Positions 1 through 10,812 of a DNA stretch of 64,000 bases are shown here, one piece after another. Source of the DNA: Ignavibacteria bacterium. GTDB lineage: Bacteria; Bacteroidota; Ignavibacteria; UBA10030; SZUA-254. The translations under genes were made by a program, and so were the position numbers. A model generated the notes under the pieces. That model worked only from the letters and a program-made list of their open reading frames with translations. It was not told the DNA's origin and did not search any database. Position 1 is the stretch's first letter. Every line of letters starts with the position of its first letter. The stretch lies in contig JACOSY010000016.1 of the NCBI GenBank assembly GCA_016178595.1, positions 38,151-102,150 of the forward strand, in the 5' to 3' direction.

Positions 1-534
1 TTGTTTGCGCCGGATGGTGCTGTGCCTGCAGTGCGAATGAGTGTTTCGAGCAATTCGCGCACGATCGGCCGGGAAGAATACTCACGCACGGTGCGGCGAC
101 GAGAACAAAGCTCATAGAATTCTCGCGCTCGCGCGGCCTGATCGCCGGCAGAGAATGCGAGCGGATGATATGGGATGAATTGAGGCATACACTTTACTCG
201 TGTGATGATGTTGCAGCTGGCAATATAGGGTTTTTGGGATGCGATTACAACATGCTTGAAACTGCTTGGAACTGCCAAAGCGGGAAGGTGCGTGGCAGTT
301 TGGAGGAATTTGACAATAAGGAACGGAGAATATATATTGCGTTCACTGTTTTGACCCGGGAGATGACTTGCTCGCGAGGATTGCTCATGCGGATCCGGAT
401 TTCCCGGTGTTTGAAAACGATCAACAGGCAAAAGAGATGACAACGTATATATGCCGACCACTGTGGGTGGGAATGACGAAGGCGTAATTACAGACGTTAA
501 GCGCCGTTTGCCAACAGAATGAATCTAATTAAGA

Positions 535-1380
535 ATGCAACCCAATTCATTTATTGAACAAATCCTGTTCTCAACTTTACGGATAGAACTGTACGACAAC
601 CACGAAAAATCCAAAGGGATTGGGACGGGTTTTCTTGTGACGACTGAAATACCAGACGATCCGAATACTTCCCTTGTCCTTATGATAACGAATAGGCACG
701 TTCTTCAGTCGAACTCACAGTTCGTCATTAATTTCCATAAGAGGCTTTCTGGTTTAAATCAACCAGACTTGGAACATACTTACACAGTAAATGCTGGCGA
801 CATTCGTGAAAGCTATTACTGCCATCCCAATCCCGATGTCGACCTTGCCTGTGTAAATCTCTCATCAGTCATAGACAATATCCGCGATCAGATTTACTTT
901 AGATACTTACCATCCAATTTGTTCGCTAGCTTCTTGGAACCAGAAATGGATGCTGGAACAAAAGTGATTTTCGTTGGGTACCCGGACAATCGATATGACG
1001 AGCGCCATAATCTGCCAATTGTCCGCAGTGGAATTGTTGCAAGTCATCCAAAGATCGACTTCAACGGATTGCCTCAGTTTATCATCGACGCTCAGGTCTT
1101 CCCTGGTTCAAGTGGCAGTCCAGTATTTCTCAATAACATCGATGCAATGTTGAACCGAGCAATTATGCCAATGCATCCTATTACTTCGTATATCTTTCTC
1201 GGGGTCGTCTCTGCTACGATGATCAGAAACAACAGAATCAATTTTATGCAAACCCAACTGAAGCCTTTCGCCGAAGAGATTATAGGTCTTGGAATCGTAT
1301 TCAAATCGACTGCCGTAAGGGAGCTCATGAGCGAGGCGGTGAAAGGGTACAAGAGTAAAAAGTTGGCAAACGGCACTTAA
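535..1380 (+). CDS. Trypsin-like (S1/chymotrypsin-fold) serine peptidase domain protein
   Basis: The N-terminal GTGFLV block is followed by TNRHV (catalytic His context) and later GSSGSPVF (the GDSGGP-like Ser motif). It lies in a lower-GC islet next to an R-M pair. Confidence 0.6.
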   Translation: MQPNSFIEQILFSTLRIELYDNHEKSKGIGTGFLVTTEIPDDPNTSLVLMITNRHVLQSNSQFVINFHKRLSGLNQPDLEHTYTVNAGDIRESYYCHPNPDVDLACVNLSSVIDNIRDQIYFRYLPSNLFASFLEPEMDAGTKVIFVGYPDNRYDERHNLPIVRSGIVASHPKIDFNGLPQFIIDAQVFPGSSGSPVFLNNIDAMLNRAIMPMHPITSYIFLGVVSATMIRNNRINFMQTQLKPFAEEIIGLGIVFKSTAVRELMSEAVKGYKSKKLANGT

Positions 1381-1490
1381 CACGCAAAACACCGACGCTG
1401 GAATGAGTAGCCACAGAAACTAAGAGCCTCAGGGCATTTCTTTGGCCCATATTATTTGCAATCGGACACAAACTCTGATTATATTGATCT

Positions 1491-2300
1491 ATGCAACGAA
1501 AAAATGATGAGAAATATCTTCAAATCTTATTGCGTGCAATTCGCGTCTGCGCAAAATACCAACCCAAACTTGGACACGGCAATAAGCAAGGTTACTCCCT
1601 TGACGATTTTCAGAAGATATACGGCCGCGATCCATTCTACAACTGGATGGGCTTGGATGATCCATTGATGTACGCAGCTCATAAGGCTGCGGGTGGAATG
1701 ACAAGTGTTTACCGGCAGATCGGAATTGGTTGTGAGGGCGTTTTCCGATCTGTCTTGCAGGATTCTCTGGGCCTTTCAGACGAAGATGTTAGCTGGTCCT
1801 ATAAGACTCGCAAAGTCGGCGGGAAGTCGGGCACTCTATATCTTGACGCTAGAATTCCGTTTTTTGCATTGGCTGATGCGAACGCAAAAAAGCGTATGGA
1901 AAAATGGTTGTCTGATGCAGCGTCCTTTCTCGACATCGATTCGAAAATCCATCGATCCCTGCAAGGGGTGGTATTCGAGGTTCGACAAGGTTATAAGAGC
2001 AAGGATTCTAAACGACAGAATGCTGACATAGCTAACGCCGCCACAGCATACACCAAGGGTTATCTTCCGTGCGTGGCAGTTCTCTCTACGCAAATAGATG
2101 AGGACATCTCCCTTCGCTATCGCTCTGAGAAATGGTTGATCCTAACAGGCATTACTCGACGCTCTTCTTCTATCGAGTCTGTATATTCTTTTATGCGTCA
2201 TGTGGTCGGTTACGACCTCGCCGACTTTTTCGAAAGGAACAAACAGCAGTTGAAGCAAGAAGTCCACAATGTACTGGTTTCACTCTTGTCTACGAAGTAG
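1491..2300 (+). CDS. Putative Type II restriction endonuclease (PD-(D/E)xK-like), partner of the downstream methyltransferase
   Basis: The gene ends 13 bp upstream of the MTase and runs in the same direction. LYLDARI...VVFEVRQGYK is compatible with a PD-(D/E)xK core. No other recognisable family was seen, so this is a context-based call. Confidence 0.35.
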   Translation: MQRKNDEKYLQILLRAIRVCAKYQPKLGHGNKQGYSLDDFQKIYGRDPFYNWMGLDDPLMYAAHKAAGGMTSVYRQIGIGCEGVFRSVLQDSLGLSDEDVSWSYKTRKVGGKSGTLYLDARIPFFALADANAKKRMEKWLSDAASFLDIDSKIHRSLQGVVFEVRQGYKSKDSKRQNADIANAATAYTKGYLPCVAVLSTQIDEDISLRYRSEKWLILTGITRRSSSIESVYSFMRHVVGYDLADFFERNKQQLKQEVHNVLVSLLSTK

Positions 2301-2312
2301 CTCTGAATCATT

Positions 2313-3548
2313 ATGCAAACCGCGATTCTCAAACAACGACCTGACTATACGTACAAGTTCAACGTAGAATCAGGAAGACACGGCTGGCTCCGTCTCACTC
2401 CTGCTTATTCTGTGAAGATCGTCGAGGAATTACTTGTTGAATCTTCCGCTCGGCAATCAGTCTTGGATCCATTCTCTGGCACGGGCACAACCGCTCTGTG
2501 TTCTACATATCATGGAAAGAACGTGGTATCTGTGGATATCAACTCATTTCTTGTATGGCTTGCGTCAACCAAATGCAGACATTATACAAGTGATACCATG
2601 GCATACACACGTGAACTCGGAAATTTAATAACAAGATCGATCCACAATGGGAATCTCGACCCGATCTCTGCCCCGCCTATCTTTGATATCCAACGTTGGT
2701 GGAACGAGGACGAGCTCCTGTTTCTTAGAACACTCAAGAGTGGTATTGACTCTTTTTGTGCTACAGAAAGTCCGGAAAGGGACATTCTCCTCATAACTTT
2801 CTGCCGCATTCTCATAAAACTCTCCAACGCGGCTTTCAATCATCAATCAATGTCTTTCAAAGATCAGCATACCAATCAATTACTGATTCTAGATCGTAGT
2901 TTGGATTTCGTGCGGCTCTTCGCAAACGAACTAGATGTCGTCCTTTCATCCGCACAACACAATCCAATCACCACCGCCAAGATTGTGCTTGGCGATGCAA
3001 GAGACCTCGAAAAGTGTACTCAAGATAAATTTGATCTTTTGATAACATCTCCGCCATACCCGAATCGAATGTCTTACATCCGCGAGTTGCGTCCTTACAT
3101 GTATTGGCTTGGCTATCTGAAGGAGGCCAGGGAAGCGGGCGACCTCGACTGGGAAACCATTGGAGGTACTTGGGGAATCGCAACTAGTAGGCTCATGCAA
3201 TGGAAACCGACCAGCGATAACTACCTCACGGATGAGCTGTCTCAATTTCTTTCCAAACTGTCTGAGTCAAATGAAAAGAACGGAGTTCTACTAGCAAACT
3301 ATGTATCGAAGTATTTTAGTGACATCTGGAACCATCTGAACAGCGTTCGACGAGTCCTCACAACGAACGCAAAGGTAAATTACATTGTCGGCAATTCCCT
3401 GTTTTATGGATTCGTACTCCCTGTAGAGATTATTTATCAGAACATGCTCAAGTCCGTGGGTTTCGACCACGTTAAGATTACTCCTATCAGGAAAAGGAAC
3501 TCGAAAAAAGCTCTGTTTGAATATAATGTTTCGGCAATAAGCCCTTAG
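2313..3548 (+). CDS. DNA methyltransferase (N6-adenine or N4-cytosine, alpha-class motif order)
   Basis: Motif I DPFSGTGTT (FxGxG AdoMet site) lies near the N-terminus. Motif IV SPPY lies about 190 aa downstream (LLITSPPYPNRMSY). The architecture is typical of amino-MTases. Confidence 0.8.
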   Translation: MQTAILKQRPDYTYKFNVESGRHGWLRLTPAYSVKIVEELLVESSARQSVLDPFSGTGTTALCSTYHGKNVVSVDINSFLVWLASTKCRHYTSDTMAYTRELGNLITRSIHNGNLDPISAPPIFDIQRWWNEDELLFLRTLKSGIDSFCATESPERDILLITFCRILIKLSNAAFNHQSMSFKDQHTNQLLILDRSLDFVRLFANELDVVLSSAQHNPITTAKIVLGDARDLEKCTQDKFDLLITSPPYPNRMSYIRELRPYMYWLGYLKEAREAGDLDWETIGGTWGIATSRLMQWKPTSDNYLTDELSQFLSKLSESNEKNGVLLANYVSKYFSDIWNHLNSVRRVLTTNAKVNYIVGNSLFYGFVLPVEIIYQNMLKSVGFDHVKITPIRKRNSKKALFEYNVSAISP

Positions 3549-3814
3549 TTAGCGAGCGTCGAAACGAATCCTCAAACCCCGACCTGGCACCTTCCTGATT
3601 CGTAGCAAGCCCACGAACGCATAACAAGCGTAACAACGTCGCCTTTATTGAAATGAATTATAGTGGCTCAATGCTTCTGCTCACAGAAAATTTGTCTCTT
3701 GATAGTTCGCTCCAGCATTGCGTTGTTACGCCGGACGTTATCCGCAAGCGTGCCCACGCCAAAAACATACGTGCCGGGATCATCTGGAATGACTCTTACA
3801 GATAAAAAGACAAT

Positions 3815-4270
3815 TTGAACGTGAACACCACACAAACAAATATGAAATTGATCACGGGTTGTCTTCTGAGCGTGATCTTGTCGCTACTTGTCGTTGGCGT
3901 CGTGAGTGCTACGCTTCTCCGCCACATTGTTCAAATCACTCCGGTCGCCTTAGCACTTATCGCGACTACACGCAGAGCTTCCTGGAGTCCGTATGCCGCT
4001 TTACCTCTCTTTGTTTTCTGGCTCGTCATCATGGCCTTTATCTGGCTTTTTCTGCTCGGTGTTGCAACTATCGTAAGCGGGCGCTTTACGCCCATTGAAA
4101 TTGCGATGACTATCATCGTTGGCATCTGCTCTTTAGTAGGAGCCAGAGCATCACCACGTATCACATCGGGCACGAAAATTTCCGTTAAAGTGTTGACGTT
4201 TCTGCTCTTCCTCGCTCTGCAGGTTTTTGCAATGTGGCTGAGCTTGAGAGAGTCTATCGCTCATGCCTAA
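3815..4270 (+). CDS. Hypothetical polytopic membrane protein
   Basis: 151 aa with at least four hydrophobic helices. The alternative start MKLITG is at 3842. Confidence 0.4.
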   Translation: MNVNTTQTNMKLITGCLLSVILSLLVVGVVSATLLRHIVQITPVALALIATTRRASWSPYAALPLFVFWLVIMAFIWLFLLGVATIVSGRFTPIEIAMTIIVGICSLVGARASPRITSGTKISVKVLTFLLFLALQVFAMWLSLRESIAHA

Positions 4271-4301
4271 GACTTCAGTGTTACGCTCAATATTTTCTCT
4301 C

Positions 4302-6362
4302 TCACCAATTCAACACGGGAAAGAGCGACGTGTAATCGTCCGTCCACACCGGCACGGTAATAGTCGTCTGCCGGTCGGGGAAAACTGCTTCTTGAACTGC
4401 TCGCTGCTGAAGCAATGTCGTGTTCAGCGTTAACACGATCCACTCGGACGGAAACCGGCGGATGTCGCGCTCCTGGTTGAAATCGGTCAATACAATCATT
4501 GGAAGCTTTAACTCCTTCGCGACCGCAGCAACCACGGCGTGAAGGTTCACCTGTTTGCTGGAGATGTTGACGAGGATTGCGCCGTCCGGCTTGATGTGCT
4601 TCAGGAAAATTTCGAACGCTTCCCTGGTCAACAAATGCACGGGAGGAGAATCGCTGTTGAATGCATCCAGCACGAGCACGTCGAAATTCTGCGGCGGCTC
4701 CTTCTCCATCGAGAGGCGCGCATCGCCGATGACGATGTCGTTCCGTGCCAGGCAATCGGCAAGATAGGTGAAATGCTTCTCCGCCAACTGCTGCACCTGC
4801 GGGTTGATTTCGTAGAAGCGAAAATAGTCTCCGGGCCTGCCATACGCTGCGAGCGTTCCCACTCCCAGCCCCACCACACCGACACGGTGCGCGCTATCTC
4901 CCGGTAAGCTTGTCAGAACTCGTCCGGCTCCGCCTTTCGCAGTGAAATACGACGTGGGCATACGATGGTACTGCGGGTTGATAAACTGATACCCATGCAG
5001 CGTTTTCCCGTGCCGCATGACAAGGAACTGTCGATCACGATCGTTCTCATTATACGACGTGATCGCGAGCGTACTGAAAAAATTTCGTGCCGTATCCACC
5101 GTGTTATGATAGATAATGCGTGTCTGCTGGTAGAAAAGAATTGCAAAGATTGCCACTCCGGCTGCAAGGCCTGCCCATGCCCAGCGAGGTTTTCCGCGAC
5201 GCAACGGACTCGTCTCATCGACAAAGAACATCAGCAGGACAACACCGCAGCATGCAAGGATCGCGCATTGAAACTCATAATATCCGCTGAACAACACCGG
5301 CGCAAGAAACGTTACGAACATTCCGCCCATAGCGCCGCCAGCTGCAATCGACAAGTAATAGGAGGTAAGATGCGATGGCGGCGGTTTCAGTCGCGCGACC
5401 TCGCCATGACAAATCATGCAGCCGATGAATACAAGGCATGAATAGATTGCAAGCTGCGGCAGAAATGTCAACGTTTCTTCATTGAACATCATCCAGCACA
5501 CGATTGAGATAGCGACAAGGTATGCAATCGCGTATGTCGGGCGCGAGTACCACCGCGGGTGATCGAATGTGAGGACGAATGTGAGAAGATAGATGGCCAG
5601 CGGCAGCACCCAGAGCAACGGCATCGGCACAACTTCCTGGCAGAGCTTATTCGTTGTTGAGAGCAGCAGCACCGATGCGATCGCCGGCAGCGTTATCCAC
5701 AACGCACGATCGAGCAACGGCACAGCGACGACTTCTTGTTTTTCATCGTCCGGCGTCCGGGGACCCGGAAGAACCGAAGCCTTGCGCCAAAGGTAGACAG
5801 CACTCGCGACACACACGACGACGAACACCATCATCCCCCACGACCATACTTCCGCTTGCGCCCGGCGCGCGATGTTCGGCTCGACCACAAAGGGATATGC
5901 GATCAGTGCAAGCAGAGAGCCGACGTTCGATAACGCATAGAGTCGGTACGGAACTGTCGCAGGGGAAAGCATACTCAGCCAGCGCTGAAGCAGCGGACCG
6001 GTGGTCGCAAGAACAAAGTACGGAATGCCGAGCGAAACAAAGAGCAGCGTCAGGATGCGAATCGTCGGGTCGACGTTCGATGTGGGTTTCCATTGATCTC
6101 CGGGAATGATCGGCAAGAGCACGAGTGCGAGAAGAAGAATCAGAACGTGCAGAATAATCTGCTGGCGTGGACGAAGATATCGTGTGATCAGATGACTGTA
6201 GGCATATCCGAACAGAAGAAACGTTTGGAAGAACACGATGCAGGTTGTCCACACCGCTGCACTGCCGCCGAACCACGGCAGGATGTATTTGCTGATGATC
6301 GGCTGAACAAGGAAGAGGAGAAACGCGCTGAGAACAATTGTTATGGAATAGAGGATACGCAT
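4302..6362 (-). CDS. Fused polytopic membrane domain / spermidine-synthase-like aminopropyltransferase
   Basis: The N-terminal half has about 10 TM helices. The C-terminus has a spermidine synthase fold with GVVGLGVGTLA and DVLVLDAFNSD...PDGILVNI motifs. The start was chosen at MRILY (6362) because the upstream ATG at 6383 lies inside a hairpin. Confidence 0.7.
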   Translation of the reverse strand: MRILYSITIVLSAFLLFLVQPIISKYILPWFGGSAAVWTTCIVFFQTFLLFGYAYSHLITRYLRPRQQIILHVLILLLALVLLPIIPGDQWKPTSNVDPTIRILTLLFVSLGIPYFVLATTGPLLQRWLSMLSPATVPYRLYALSNVGSLLALIAYPFVVEPNIARRAQAEVWSWGMMVFVVVCVASAVYLWRKASVLPGPRTPDDEKQEVVAVPLLDRALWITLPAIASVLLLSTTNKLCQEVVPMPLLWVLPLAIYLLTFVLTFDHPRWYSRPTYAIAYLVAISIVCWMMFNEETLTFLPQLAIYSCLVFIGCMICHGEVARLKPPPSHLTSYYLSIAAGGAMGGMFVTFLAPVLFSGYYEFQCAILACCGVVLLMFFVDETSPLRRGKPRWAWAGLAAGVAIFAILFYQQTRIIYHNTVDTARNFFSTLAITSYNENDRDRQFLVMRHGKTLHGYQFINPQYHRMPTSYFTAKGGAGRVLTSLPGDSAHRVGVVGLGVGTLAAYGRPGDYFRFYEINPQVQQLAEKHFTYLADCLARNDIVIGDARLSMEKEPPQNFDVLVLDAFNSDSPPVHLLTREAFEIFLKHIKPDGAILVNISSKQVNLHAVVAAVAKELKLPMIVLTDFNQERDIRRFPSEWIVLTLNTTLLQQRAVQEAVFPDRQTTITVPVWTDDYTSLFPVLNW

Positions 6363-9841: not shown

Positions 9842-10812
9842 TACGCAACCACCTTCTGCTCATCCACCATCTCGATCAGTCGAGCGCTCAACTGTTCCTG
9901 ATGCATCGTCACGAGAATCATGACAAGGTTAATGCCGACAATCTCCGTGACGAAATACACCGGCACGACATCCGCAAGCACGCAGATTGACATGACGATC
10001 ATTCGCGTGTTCGTTGTCAGCGCGGCATAATACTTCATGAGCGGCTTGTTCAAACGACGGTACTCGTCGGAGAACCACGAGGGAATATTTGTTCCGAACT
10101 CCTGCTCGACTCGTTTCCGCAGCGTCTGAAAAGTTTTTGAGAGCGCTTCTTGTTGAACCGTGTAGTTCAAGTAGACGCGGAGAAGAATCTTCTTCAAAGG
10201 ATTCCTCGCGAAGGATGTCGACCGGTATTCGGAGCGAACTTGATCGGATTGGTCAAGCTCGGACTTGGTCGGATCGACGACAAATTTCAAGTATGCATTC
10301 CTGTAGTAATCGGCGAGCGAGCTTTGGAGGGAATGGCTGATGCCTCCTGCAAGTGTGAGCACAAGCAGTAACGGCCAGGCTACGTTCGGATATGTTTCGA
10401 CCATGCGTGCAAAGAGGTGCAGATAGATGCTGAGGAACATGATGTTCCCGCCGAGACCGTCGAGAATGCGGCCAATCTTCGATCGGTGGTTCGTCATGCG
10501 GGCAAGCTGCCCATCGACACTGTCAAGCGTATCGGCGATGATCCAGAGTGCGATTCCCCAGACATTGGTAAGGAAGTCTCTATAATAGAGCAAATGCCCG
10601 CCGGCGACGCCGATGAAGATGCTAACGATGGTGACGACGTTCGGCGTAATGCCAAGCGACTGACACGCCCGTGCGATCCAGAACCCGAGCGGACGGTAGA
10701 AGTAGATATCGATCGTCTCTTCGACGTCGCGGGCTTTGTACGTGGATTCGATTGCGGGTGTGGTAAATGTGTTCATCTCAATGTATTTTTCTGTTGCCGT
10801 AAACTTAGCCAT
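9841..10812 (-). CDS. CDP-alcohol phosphatidyltransferase family protein (PIP synthase / DIPP synthase-like)
   Basis: DTLDSVDGQLARMTNHRSKIGRILDGLGGN matches the D-G-x2-A-R-x8-G-x3-D-x3-D signature. There are multiple TM helices. Confidence 0.75.
   Translation of the reverse strand: MAKFTATEKYIEMNTFTTPAIESTYKARDVEETIDIYFYRPLGFWIARACQSLGITPNVVTIVSIFIGVAGGHLLYYRDFLTNVWGIALWIIADTLDSVDGQLARMTNHRSKIGRILDGLGGNIMFLSIYLHLFARMVETYPNVAWPLLLVLTLAGGISHSLQSSLADYYRNAYLKFVVDPTKSELDQSDQVRSEYRSTSFARNPLKKILLRVYLNYTVQQEALSKTFQTLRKRVEQEFGTNIPSWFSDEYRRLNKPLMKYYAALTTNTRMIVMSICVLADVVPVYFVTEIVGINLVMILVTMHQEQLSARLIEMVDEQKVVA

Follow-up and report, generated by a model that had tools for sequence, protein, structure and literature searches.

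The 64,000-nucleotide stretch of Ignavibacteria bacterium DNA analysed here (contig JACOSY010000016.1, positions 38,151 to 102,150; hereafter 'the window') carries close to its left end a low-GC islet in which a gene for a trypsin-like serine protease is followed by a Type II restriction-modification (R-M) pair, comprising a restriction endonuclease (REase) and a DNA methyltransferase (MTase). We consider it probable that the islet is not a three-part system but two independently captured integron cassettes, the remnant of an integrase-less array resembling a CALIN (cluster of attC sites lacking integron-integrases) or SALIN (single attC site lacking integron-integrase). Two components of that reading, that the islet is built of cassettes and that its two modules are independent of each other, can be put forward with greater confidence still. 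The first cassette (approximately 496-1435) would hold one gene, encoding a cytoplasmic HtrA-like protease of the PADLOC family PDC-S45, with its stop codon built into the inverse core of the attC recombination site. The second (approximately 1436-3743) would hold the R-M pair, closed by an intact attC. Both the adjacency of the protease and R-M genes and the low GC content would then follow from the islet being made of integron gene cassettes. What the analysis shows is the identity and fold of the gene products, the limits of the cassettes, covariation within one attC family and an absence of co-inheritance; the activity of the R-M pair and the action of the protease are inferences.

GC content is 44.7% across positions 496-3749 compared to 51.1% in the remaining window, and lies below that of every equal-sized window elsewhere in the 64 kb (mean 51.1%, standard deviation 1.4%, minimum 46.5%). 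A first-pass annotation of the window had already drawn attention to an AT-richer segment at 170-3600; as a low-GC islet, the lowest of its size in the window, this stands, while its limits are here reset. On sequence grounds 496, the predicted cassette start, and 3743, the end of the attC site, are better limits. The islet contains three open reading frames (ORFs), all on the + strand, of 281, 269 and 411 aa, and its orientation is identical in six of six assemblies. A further 91-aa ORF at 165-440 is without support.

The protease ORF is bracketed by a 20-nt inverted repeat, revealed by a repeat scan, in which 19 of 20 positions are complementary and whose arms lie upstream of the gene and across its stop codon. 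The score of the bracket, 17, may be compared to a maximum of 11 in 200 shuffles. The arms end in GTTAAGC and ACTTAAC, which we take to be the core (GTTRRRY) and inverse-core (RYYYAAC) signatures, respectively, of an integron attC site. Both arms are also present in the contig of a 79%-identical protease relative (L070), with a compensatory A-T to G-C change. The inverse core (R'') occupies the same position, -5 relative to the stop-codon end, in the window, in L070 and in two further protease-bearing contigs, L038 and L041. No significant bracket was found in a search around 50 distant protease homologs, indicating that it is limited to the cassette-borne protease lineage.

The one intact site lies downstream of the MTase gene. 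It was scored with a covariance model of the leave-one-out type, built without the window sequence, and yielded 50.3 bits (E=2.3e-10; hit 3604-3758), the only hit in the 64 kb and on the + strand only. The strand asymmetry is pronounced, at 50 versus 4.9 bits. As single-stranded DNA the site folds with z-scores of -2.8 and -3.3.

Sites of this kind recur around relatives of the islet genes. Downstream of the protease in L070 there are three regularly spaced hairpins of around 145 nt each, giving three sites in 2.5 kb. The contig of a 73%-identical REase relative (L072) contains 13 hairpins in 20.8 kb, placed one to a gap among 27 co-oriented genes that are mostly small and without domain matches; here the REase-MTase pair sits between two hairpins, forming a single cassette. 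Leave-one-out scoring also places sites on both sides of a 53%-identical protease relative (P0007), with 61 and 42 bits. Altogether 17 attC sites make up one family in which the YTAAC and GTTA boxes are invariant, with several sites off by one R/Y position, and in which the spacers are asymmetric, at 2 and 7 nt. Paired positions account for 92.3% of cells in the family alignment, compared to 75.1% after shuffling and 35-53% when the partners are slid relative to one another. The covariation score of 0.458 was reached by none of 500 shuffles, for which the corresponding value was 0.150, and double compensatory changes are seen in nine of the ten pairs that form the main L stem. For comparison, unrelated metagenomic DNA totalling 458 kb gave no hits with the model, this control consisting of 80 chance-match loci for the loose metagenome pattern GACGCTC-N(15-40)-TCGCTTCAT.

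A further property links each cassette start to its own end. Since recombination takes place at G|TT, a cassette start (TTRRRY) should be complementary to its own R''. Accordingly, the 7-mer at the cassette start is the perfect reverse complement of the inverse core of the same cassette in 8/12 cassettes of L072 and 2/2 of L070. The match is likewise 7/7 in the protease cassettes of L070, L038 and L041, and 6/7 in that of the window, as against a mean of 5.3/7 for pairings of starts with inverse cores other than their own. A strict version of the start/stop signature is present at 4/48 protease loci compared to 0.1% in a positional control, and in all four the inverse core is equally placed relative to the stop codon. 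Complementarity of the cassette start with its own 3' end in fact covers around 20 nt, reaching 13 nt past the R boxes and usually including one mismatch at position 11. This longer complementarity is seen in six of the 12 L072 cassettes, in all three of L070 and in the protease cassette of the window; in protease cassettes the 3' arm is coding, corresponding to the last six codons.

At both ends of the protease cassette the rest of the attC site is poorly preserved. Upstream, no significant full-site match is found (404-517, 0.8 bits). Between the cassettes, the stretch 1382-1435, which includes a relic R' box CTCAGGGC at approximately 1428-1435, does not fold (z = 0.1-0.25) and scores 7.9-8.8 bits with the model. 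Such decay is common, since L193, a contig with an R-M pair 90% identical to that of the window, carries a decayed copy of the post-MTase attC as well. With the inter-cassette attC decayed, the two cassettes would now be physically welded. No intact sites were detected in L193, L195 or L196 by the family model or by a generic hairpin finder, the latter missing long sites such as those in the protease-bearing contig L004; decayed attC relics are visible by eye in L193 and L196. In L196 (2772-4559) an OLD-family (AAA_15 + TOPRIM) gene follows a 57%-identical protease, and the cassette arms there are present only as relics.

Table 1. Features of the islet, with positions numbered from the first nucleotide of the window. 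Functions are predictions.
Feature	Positions	Strand	Basis
Upstream attC remnant, 3' end: L' GGCGTAATTAC plus spacer AGAC; 5' half not recognisable	481-495	+	Aligns with L'-spacer upstream of the protease in L070 and L004
Start of protease cassette: R' GTTAAGC (496-502), crossover expected at 496/497; 5' arm of inverted repeat	496-515	+	Kept in L070 and L004, with compensatory changes
Stand-alone cytoplasmic S1 serine protease, HtrA-like, no PDZ, PADLOC PDC-S45 family; triad H55/D103/S193	535-1380	+	Profile matches, fold, alignment
3' arm of inverted repeat, ending in R'' ACTTAAC (1375-1381), which contains the TAA stop	1362-1381	+	Bracket, geometry
Decayed or truncated attC of protease cassette: L'' plus GACGCT (1382-1399) kept with L070 and L004; L'/R' half missing	1382-1435	+	Alignment
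Leader of R-M cassette	1436-1490	+	Homologous to leader of the 90%-identical relative L193, homology from about 1432
Type II REase, PD-(D/E)xK fold; candidate catalytic residues D119, E163 and K169 in invariant blocks	1491-2300	+	Profile, predicted structure, alignment
Amino (N6-adenine or N4-cytosine) DNA MTase, motif I before motif IV (SPPY)	2313-3548	+	Motifs, profiles, context
Intact attC closing R-M cassette: R'' GCATAAC 3619-3625, L'' 3628-3638, L' 3721-3731, R' GTTATCC 3737-3743	3619-3743	+	Covariance model, fold

A genuine integron integrase is found beside one relative of the protease. In L038, an Opitutus metagenome-assembled genome (MAG) contig (CAZDGC010000079.1, 8534-10973), tblastn with IntI1 located a full-length IntI scoring 382 bits against TIGR02249, for which the cutoff is 265. 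The integrase gene adjoins a protease homolog and is divergent from it, making the homolog the first cassette. The homolog starts 8 nt after GTTAGGC, its stop codon lies inside GCCTAAC, and GTTGGGC follows some 141 nt later. As predicted from the sequence, this is the classic layout of intI, attI and first cassette. The protease frame in L038 appears to be broken near 10620, through either a frameshift or an assembly error. In a Desulfatiglandales MAG (L010, 7734-8058), a protease homolog is preceded, at a distance of about 2 kb, by two inverted fragments around 64% identical to the final 50 residues of IntI1, which suggests a degraded integrase. Outside L038 and these fragments the tblastn search with IntI1 found no integrase, L072, L070 and L004, the contigs that carry the attC family of the window, included. 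A regular expression for tyrosine-recombinase box II had no match either in the window or among the array loci.

The product of the first cassette was described in the first-pass annotation as a cytoplasmic-looking S1 peptidase with no signal peptide, and this description is borne out. Its domain content is a single Trypsin_2, and fold comparison indicates a double beta-barrel of the chymotrypsin type, HtrA-like, with the C-terminus forming a single helix (residues 258-278). The His-Asp-Ser order is kept, with H55 in NRHV, D103 in VDLA and S193 in GSSGSP, and none of these residues varies among 25 homologs with identities as low as 39%; an intact S1 active site is predicted. The protein shows no PDZ match, no signal peptide and no transmembrane or hydrophobic segment. 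It thereby differs from HtrA, DegP and DegS (family S1C), as it does in its length of around 280 aa, in lacking a membrane anchor, in its mobile carriage and in its patchy distribution. Searches of PDB sequences with all three islet proteins returned nothing useful.

The PDC-S45 hidden Markov model (HMM) PDLC05022 matches the protease over its full length (E=1.3e-63, 212.7 bits), aligning residues 1-270 of 281 to positions 11-285 of the 293 in the profile. Members of the family are stand-alone proteins of around 265-290 aa with one Trypsin_2 domain. PDC families were proposed because their genes sit inside BREX, DISARM or Type I R-M loci, giving 145 PDC candidates, which are untested (bioRxiv 10.1101/2024.01.29.577857). 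The window protease shares with PDC-S45 as defined in PADLOC (Payne et al.) not only the full-length match but also the single-gene form and a recurrence beside modification-based and other defence systems. The difference is one of context: the family was itself predicted by 'guilt-by-embedding', whereas the window protease and those of at least four other contexts are integron cassettes. No description of integron-cassette carriage of PDC-S45 was found in the literature.

What such a protease might do on its own can be judged from several directions. It may act alone as an anti-phage effector, the reading with most support, to which we would give a little less than an even chance. The protease would be switched on by, or act on, a phage protein, and would cleave phage proteins or essential host proteins in a form of abortive infection. 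This reading draws on the intact active site, the cytoplasmic location, the lack of a partner, the mobile carriage, the defence-rich neighbourhoods elsewhere and a kinship with abortive-infection protease domains. Retron type XI, Lamassu and Avs systems, with their protease effector domains, provide the analogy for the proposed role; to the domains of retron type XI and of Lamassu LmuA the window protease shows a weak match (E=1e-5 to 6e-7). As far as sequence goes, then, the suggestion in the first-pass annotation that the protease might be an independent defence gene agrees with the PDC-S45 match, with the absence of a recurrent partner, with the diversity of its defence neighbours and with its presence on plasmids, in prophages and in integrons.

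Two observations count against a defensive role. The family matches phrog_7688 (E=6e-46), a phrog to which no function is assigned, so that a counter-defence or other role is possible. In the literature, apart from the PDC proposal itself, the only mention of PDC-S45 found was as a PADLOC hit in a Sinorhizobium prophage (PMC12429752), and no report of phage defence was found. The protease could thus be cargo of some other kind: a counter-defence gene of a phage or mobile element, a weapon used between such elements, or a niche-specific protease. We regard this as unlikely, yet as a serious alternative. The defence role of PDC-S45 is a prediction, and most integron cassettes have no assigned function (bioRxiv 10.1101/2024.07.02.601686). 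Moreover, Shigella phage SfII contains a partial copy of the protease in a moron-like position, and among the 37 plasmids bearing the family are Acinetobacter plasmids of 12-13 kb in which the protease is the lone accessory gene. Prophage morons and plasmids, however, commonly carry defence genes too. The neighbours of the protease elsewhere are rich in diverse defence systems, and the likeness to the retron type XI and LmuA effector domains, if weak, is specific.

The second cassette encodes the R-M pair. Sequence searches place the 269-aa protein in no Pfam family and give it no solved relative; a PADLOC Type II REase model matches it along its entire length (E=2.8e-77). The structure predicted for it (pLDDT 84, pTM 0.86) matches almost exclusively PD-(D/E)xK nucleases, many of them Type II enzymes (PspGI, EcoO109I, BstEII, NgoMIV, BsaWI, PfoI, AgeI and EcoRII), so that the fold comparison upholds the assignment of this ORF to the PD-(D/E)xK endonucleases in the first-pass annotation, where the lack of a nuclease fold had been named as part of a refuting condition. 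The family is unusually conserved across 4436 matches, with invariant blocks around D119 and around E163-x-R-x-x-x-K169. A search of plasmids by tblastn gave no match to the REase, nor was an annotated name or specificity found, and searches of PDB sequences, protein families and plasmids produced no characterised homolog. The neighbouring gene had been called an amino-methyltransferase, correctly so by its motifs: FSGTG at residue 54 is followed by GDA at 227 and SPPY at 246. The best profile match of the MTase is to PADLOC MTase_II (E=1.7e-25), with weak matches to Pfam N6_N4_Mtase and D12.

From fold, motifs and co-inheritance we infer that the pair would be an active and orthodox R-M system resembling Type IIP. 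The PD-(D/E)xK REase would cut unmodified DNA, and the MTase, co-transcribed and with its start codon 12 nt after the REase stop codon, would protect that of the host. With orthodox Type II systems such as PspGI, EcoO109I, NgoMIV, BsaWI, AgeI and EcoRII it shares the nuclease core fold and the arrangement of adjacent, co-oriented REase and amino-MTase genes that are inherited together and co-evolve; the difference is that the window REase has neither detectable sequence similarity to any solved REase nor a Pfam family. Two neighbourhoods of related pairs may be recorded here. In groundwater contigs (L066-L069, 5158-5886) the REase-MTase pair is preceded, at a distance of 115 nt, by a RE_XamI-family gene of 242 aa for which no separate MTase is visible. 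This gene may encode a second endonuclease served by the same MTase or be an unrelated neighbour, and it could provide a lead to the recognition site. In L193 (720-1259) a dCTP-deaminase-like gene (PF22769) and a cold-shock-domain gene directly precede the 90%-identical R-M pair in the same orientation, and these may represent another defence-type cassette neighbour.

The independence of the two modules is apparent from their distribution. A scan with one genome per species yielded 56 loci with protease relatives, from many phyla, and co-inheritance was sought within 8-10 kb of each relative. With the window REase and MTase as tblastn queries there were no matches in 59 non-self protease loci; the contigs of the protease relatives at 79%, 57% and 53% identity likewise contain no homolog of either enzyme. 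In the opposite direction, the MTase lies next downstream in seven of eight non-self REase contexts, with gaps of around 0-30 nt, and the protease is present in none. MTase identity tracks REase identity, with REase/MTase values ranging from 90/85% to 47/41%. The Ignavibacteriae MAG GCA_016195625.1 encodes a protein 100% identical to the protease, and a single population is the only known source of the trio of protease, REase and MTase.

Nor does the protease have another regular companion. Among 154 neighbouring proteins from 51 loci, comprising the two nearest genes on each side, no family was recurrent, the most frequent reaching 3/79. The neighbours elsewhere include Type I, II and III R-M systems, Eco57I-like proteins, ThsB-TIR, SduA, AriA, Old, PglX, HEPN and SAVED proteins and resolvases. 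With the exception of one distant Dehalococcoidia subclade, the protease loci have no operon partner in common, and it is supported by these comparisons that the protease would act as a single gene with no obligate partner. In that subclade (L046, 10749-12191; L054, 10759-12102), at 33-36% identity, members share a homologous gene of 447-480 aa which overlaps the protease stop codon by about 40 nt, the sole hint of a two-gene variant of the family.

It was proposed in the first-pass annotation that the protease might be a third component of the R-M unit, with co-inheritance of the trio in other genomes as a check. The proposal is not supported: the R-M pair occurs without the protease in 8/8 contexts, the protease without the R-M pair in around 60/60, and the trio is not co-inherited in other genomes. 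A single system in which the protease activates the nuclease, or keeps guard over R-M and responds to its inhibition by a phage, in the manner of PrrC with EcoprrI, is accordingly very improbable. The three genes are adjacent and co-oriented and, with the attC between them decayed, would now move and perhaps be transcribed together. PDC families were moreover defined by embedding in modification-based systems, and PrrC provides a precedent for an embedded guard (bioRxiv 10.1101/2024.01.29.577857). Protease-nuclease pairs are also a documented defence module: trypsin-like protease and metallo-beta-lactamase (MBL) pro-nuclease modules occur in Hachiman, Avs, Lamassu and DRT systems (Tuck et al., Science 2025, PMC12799240). 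Like these modules, the islet places a trypsin-fold protease beside a nuclease in a defence context. However, in the validated pairs a gated MBL nuclease lies upstream and the protease is fused to the sensor (HamA, Avs, LmuA or a reverse transcriptase), whereas the window has a PD-(D/E)xK REase with its own MTase and a stand-alone protease, situated upstream and never co-inherited with the REase elsewhere. The MBL motif HxHxDH was absent from 258 ORFs neighbouring protease homologs. Add to this that the R-M pair is whole, and is conserved, where the protease is absent, and nothing suggests that protease and R-M work together.

The interpretation as two integron cassettes has its own difficulties. 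The window holds one intact attC plus remnants, and the site between the two cassettes is not significant alone (E about 0.1-1). The attC family is atypical in its length of around 125-150 nt, in having some inverse cores that depart from RYYYAAC and in its complementarity past the R boxes. Finally, neither IntI nor attI was found in the 64 kb or in the little sequence that is available upstream (L001-L003); the assemblies end about 1 kb upstream of the protease, and a larger integron may lie beyond. At most, therefore, the window contains a CALIN/SALIN-like remnant rather than a complete integron. The absence of an adjacent integrase, the length of the sites and the non-canonical inverse cores are also what could be said for hairpins and bracket of another repeat class (REP/MITE-like elements, terminators or an invertible segment), the islet having arrived by other means, but this is scarcely credible given that the start/own-inverse-core rule is specific to G|TT recombination, that the sites are strongly strand-asymmetric, follow co-oriented ORFs and covary in their stems, and that a genuine IntI lies beside a protease cassette with the same geometry of stop codon within R''. 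Inverted repeats around a gene could in principle mark an inverton, and the bracket was considered as such and rejected: it is a split attC, found in one orientation in all six assemblies.

On its left side the islet is flanked by a nitroreductase gene, divergent from it. All available assemblies of the organism stop some 50-650 nt past this gene, which suggests that a repeat is present there, be it further attC sites, an insertion sequence element or an integron platform. On the right, a gene at 3815-4270 (+) encodes a multi-pass membrane protein of 149-151 aa, with no family match, and is located between the attC and a convergent gene for a 693-aa membrane protein. Its GC content, 48.7%, is intermediate, and it could be either a last cassette without attC or native flank. 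Scans around the islet found no tRNA target and no flanking direct repeats, and promoter-like matches were at chance level; a tRNA-targeted island and a transposon insertion were therefore set aside. An Rfam scan of positions 1-5000 gave zero matches.

Defence genes as integron cargo are not in themselves new. Enrichment of integron cassettes in R-M and further defence systems, among which small Type II and Type IV systems predominate, has been described (Darracq et al., bioRxiv 10.1101/2024.07.02.601686), and PDC-S45 is already listed as a candidate. The defence cassettes of sedentary chromosomal integrons, CALINs and SALINs resemble those of the window in being compact, with one or two genes, in having attC sites with boxes of the RYYYAAC/GTTRRRY type and in their Type II R-M cargo; the relatives of the window cassettes, too, lie in arrays of co-oriented small genes. 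The window differs from them in having one intact attC plus remnants and no integrase, in coming from an Ignavibacteriae MAG rather than Vibrio or Xanthomonas, and in showing about 13 nt of extra complementarity. What is modestly new is the presence of a candidate defence protease as an integron cassette in several phyla, the cassettes in an Ignavibacteriae genome and the attC complementarity extending about 13 nt past the R boxes. A more far-reaching version would have PDC-S45 as a one-protein abortive-infection protease, shuttled as an integron cassette across at least four phyla (Ignavibacteriota, Verrucomicrobiota, Thermodesulfobacteriota and an FCB-type metagenomic lineage) with its stop codon in the attC inverse core, and decay of the inter-cassette attC creating a new composite three-gene defence cassette; taken as a whole we think this unlikely.

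For the islet itself, the implication is that the adjacency of protease and R-M genes stems from cassette capture and not from a three-component mechanism. For the protease family, cassettes of about 1 kb with a single gene, in integron contexts of several phyla, would offer a route by which a candidate defence protease could spread, and PDC-S45 provides a compact and easily cloned candidate for asking if phage defence can be provided by a cytoplasmic S1 protease on its own. More broadly, the islet and its relatives add non-proteobacterial examples to the finding that integrons store defence genes, without overturning current views.

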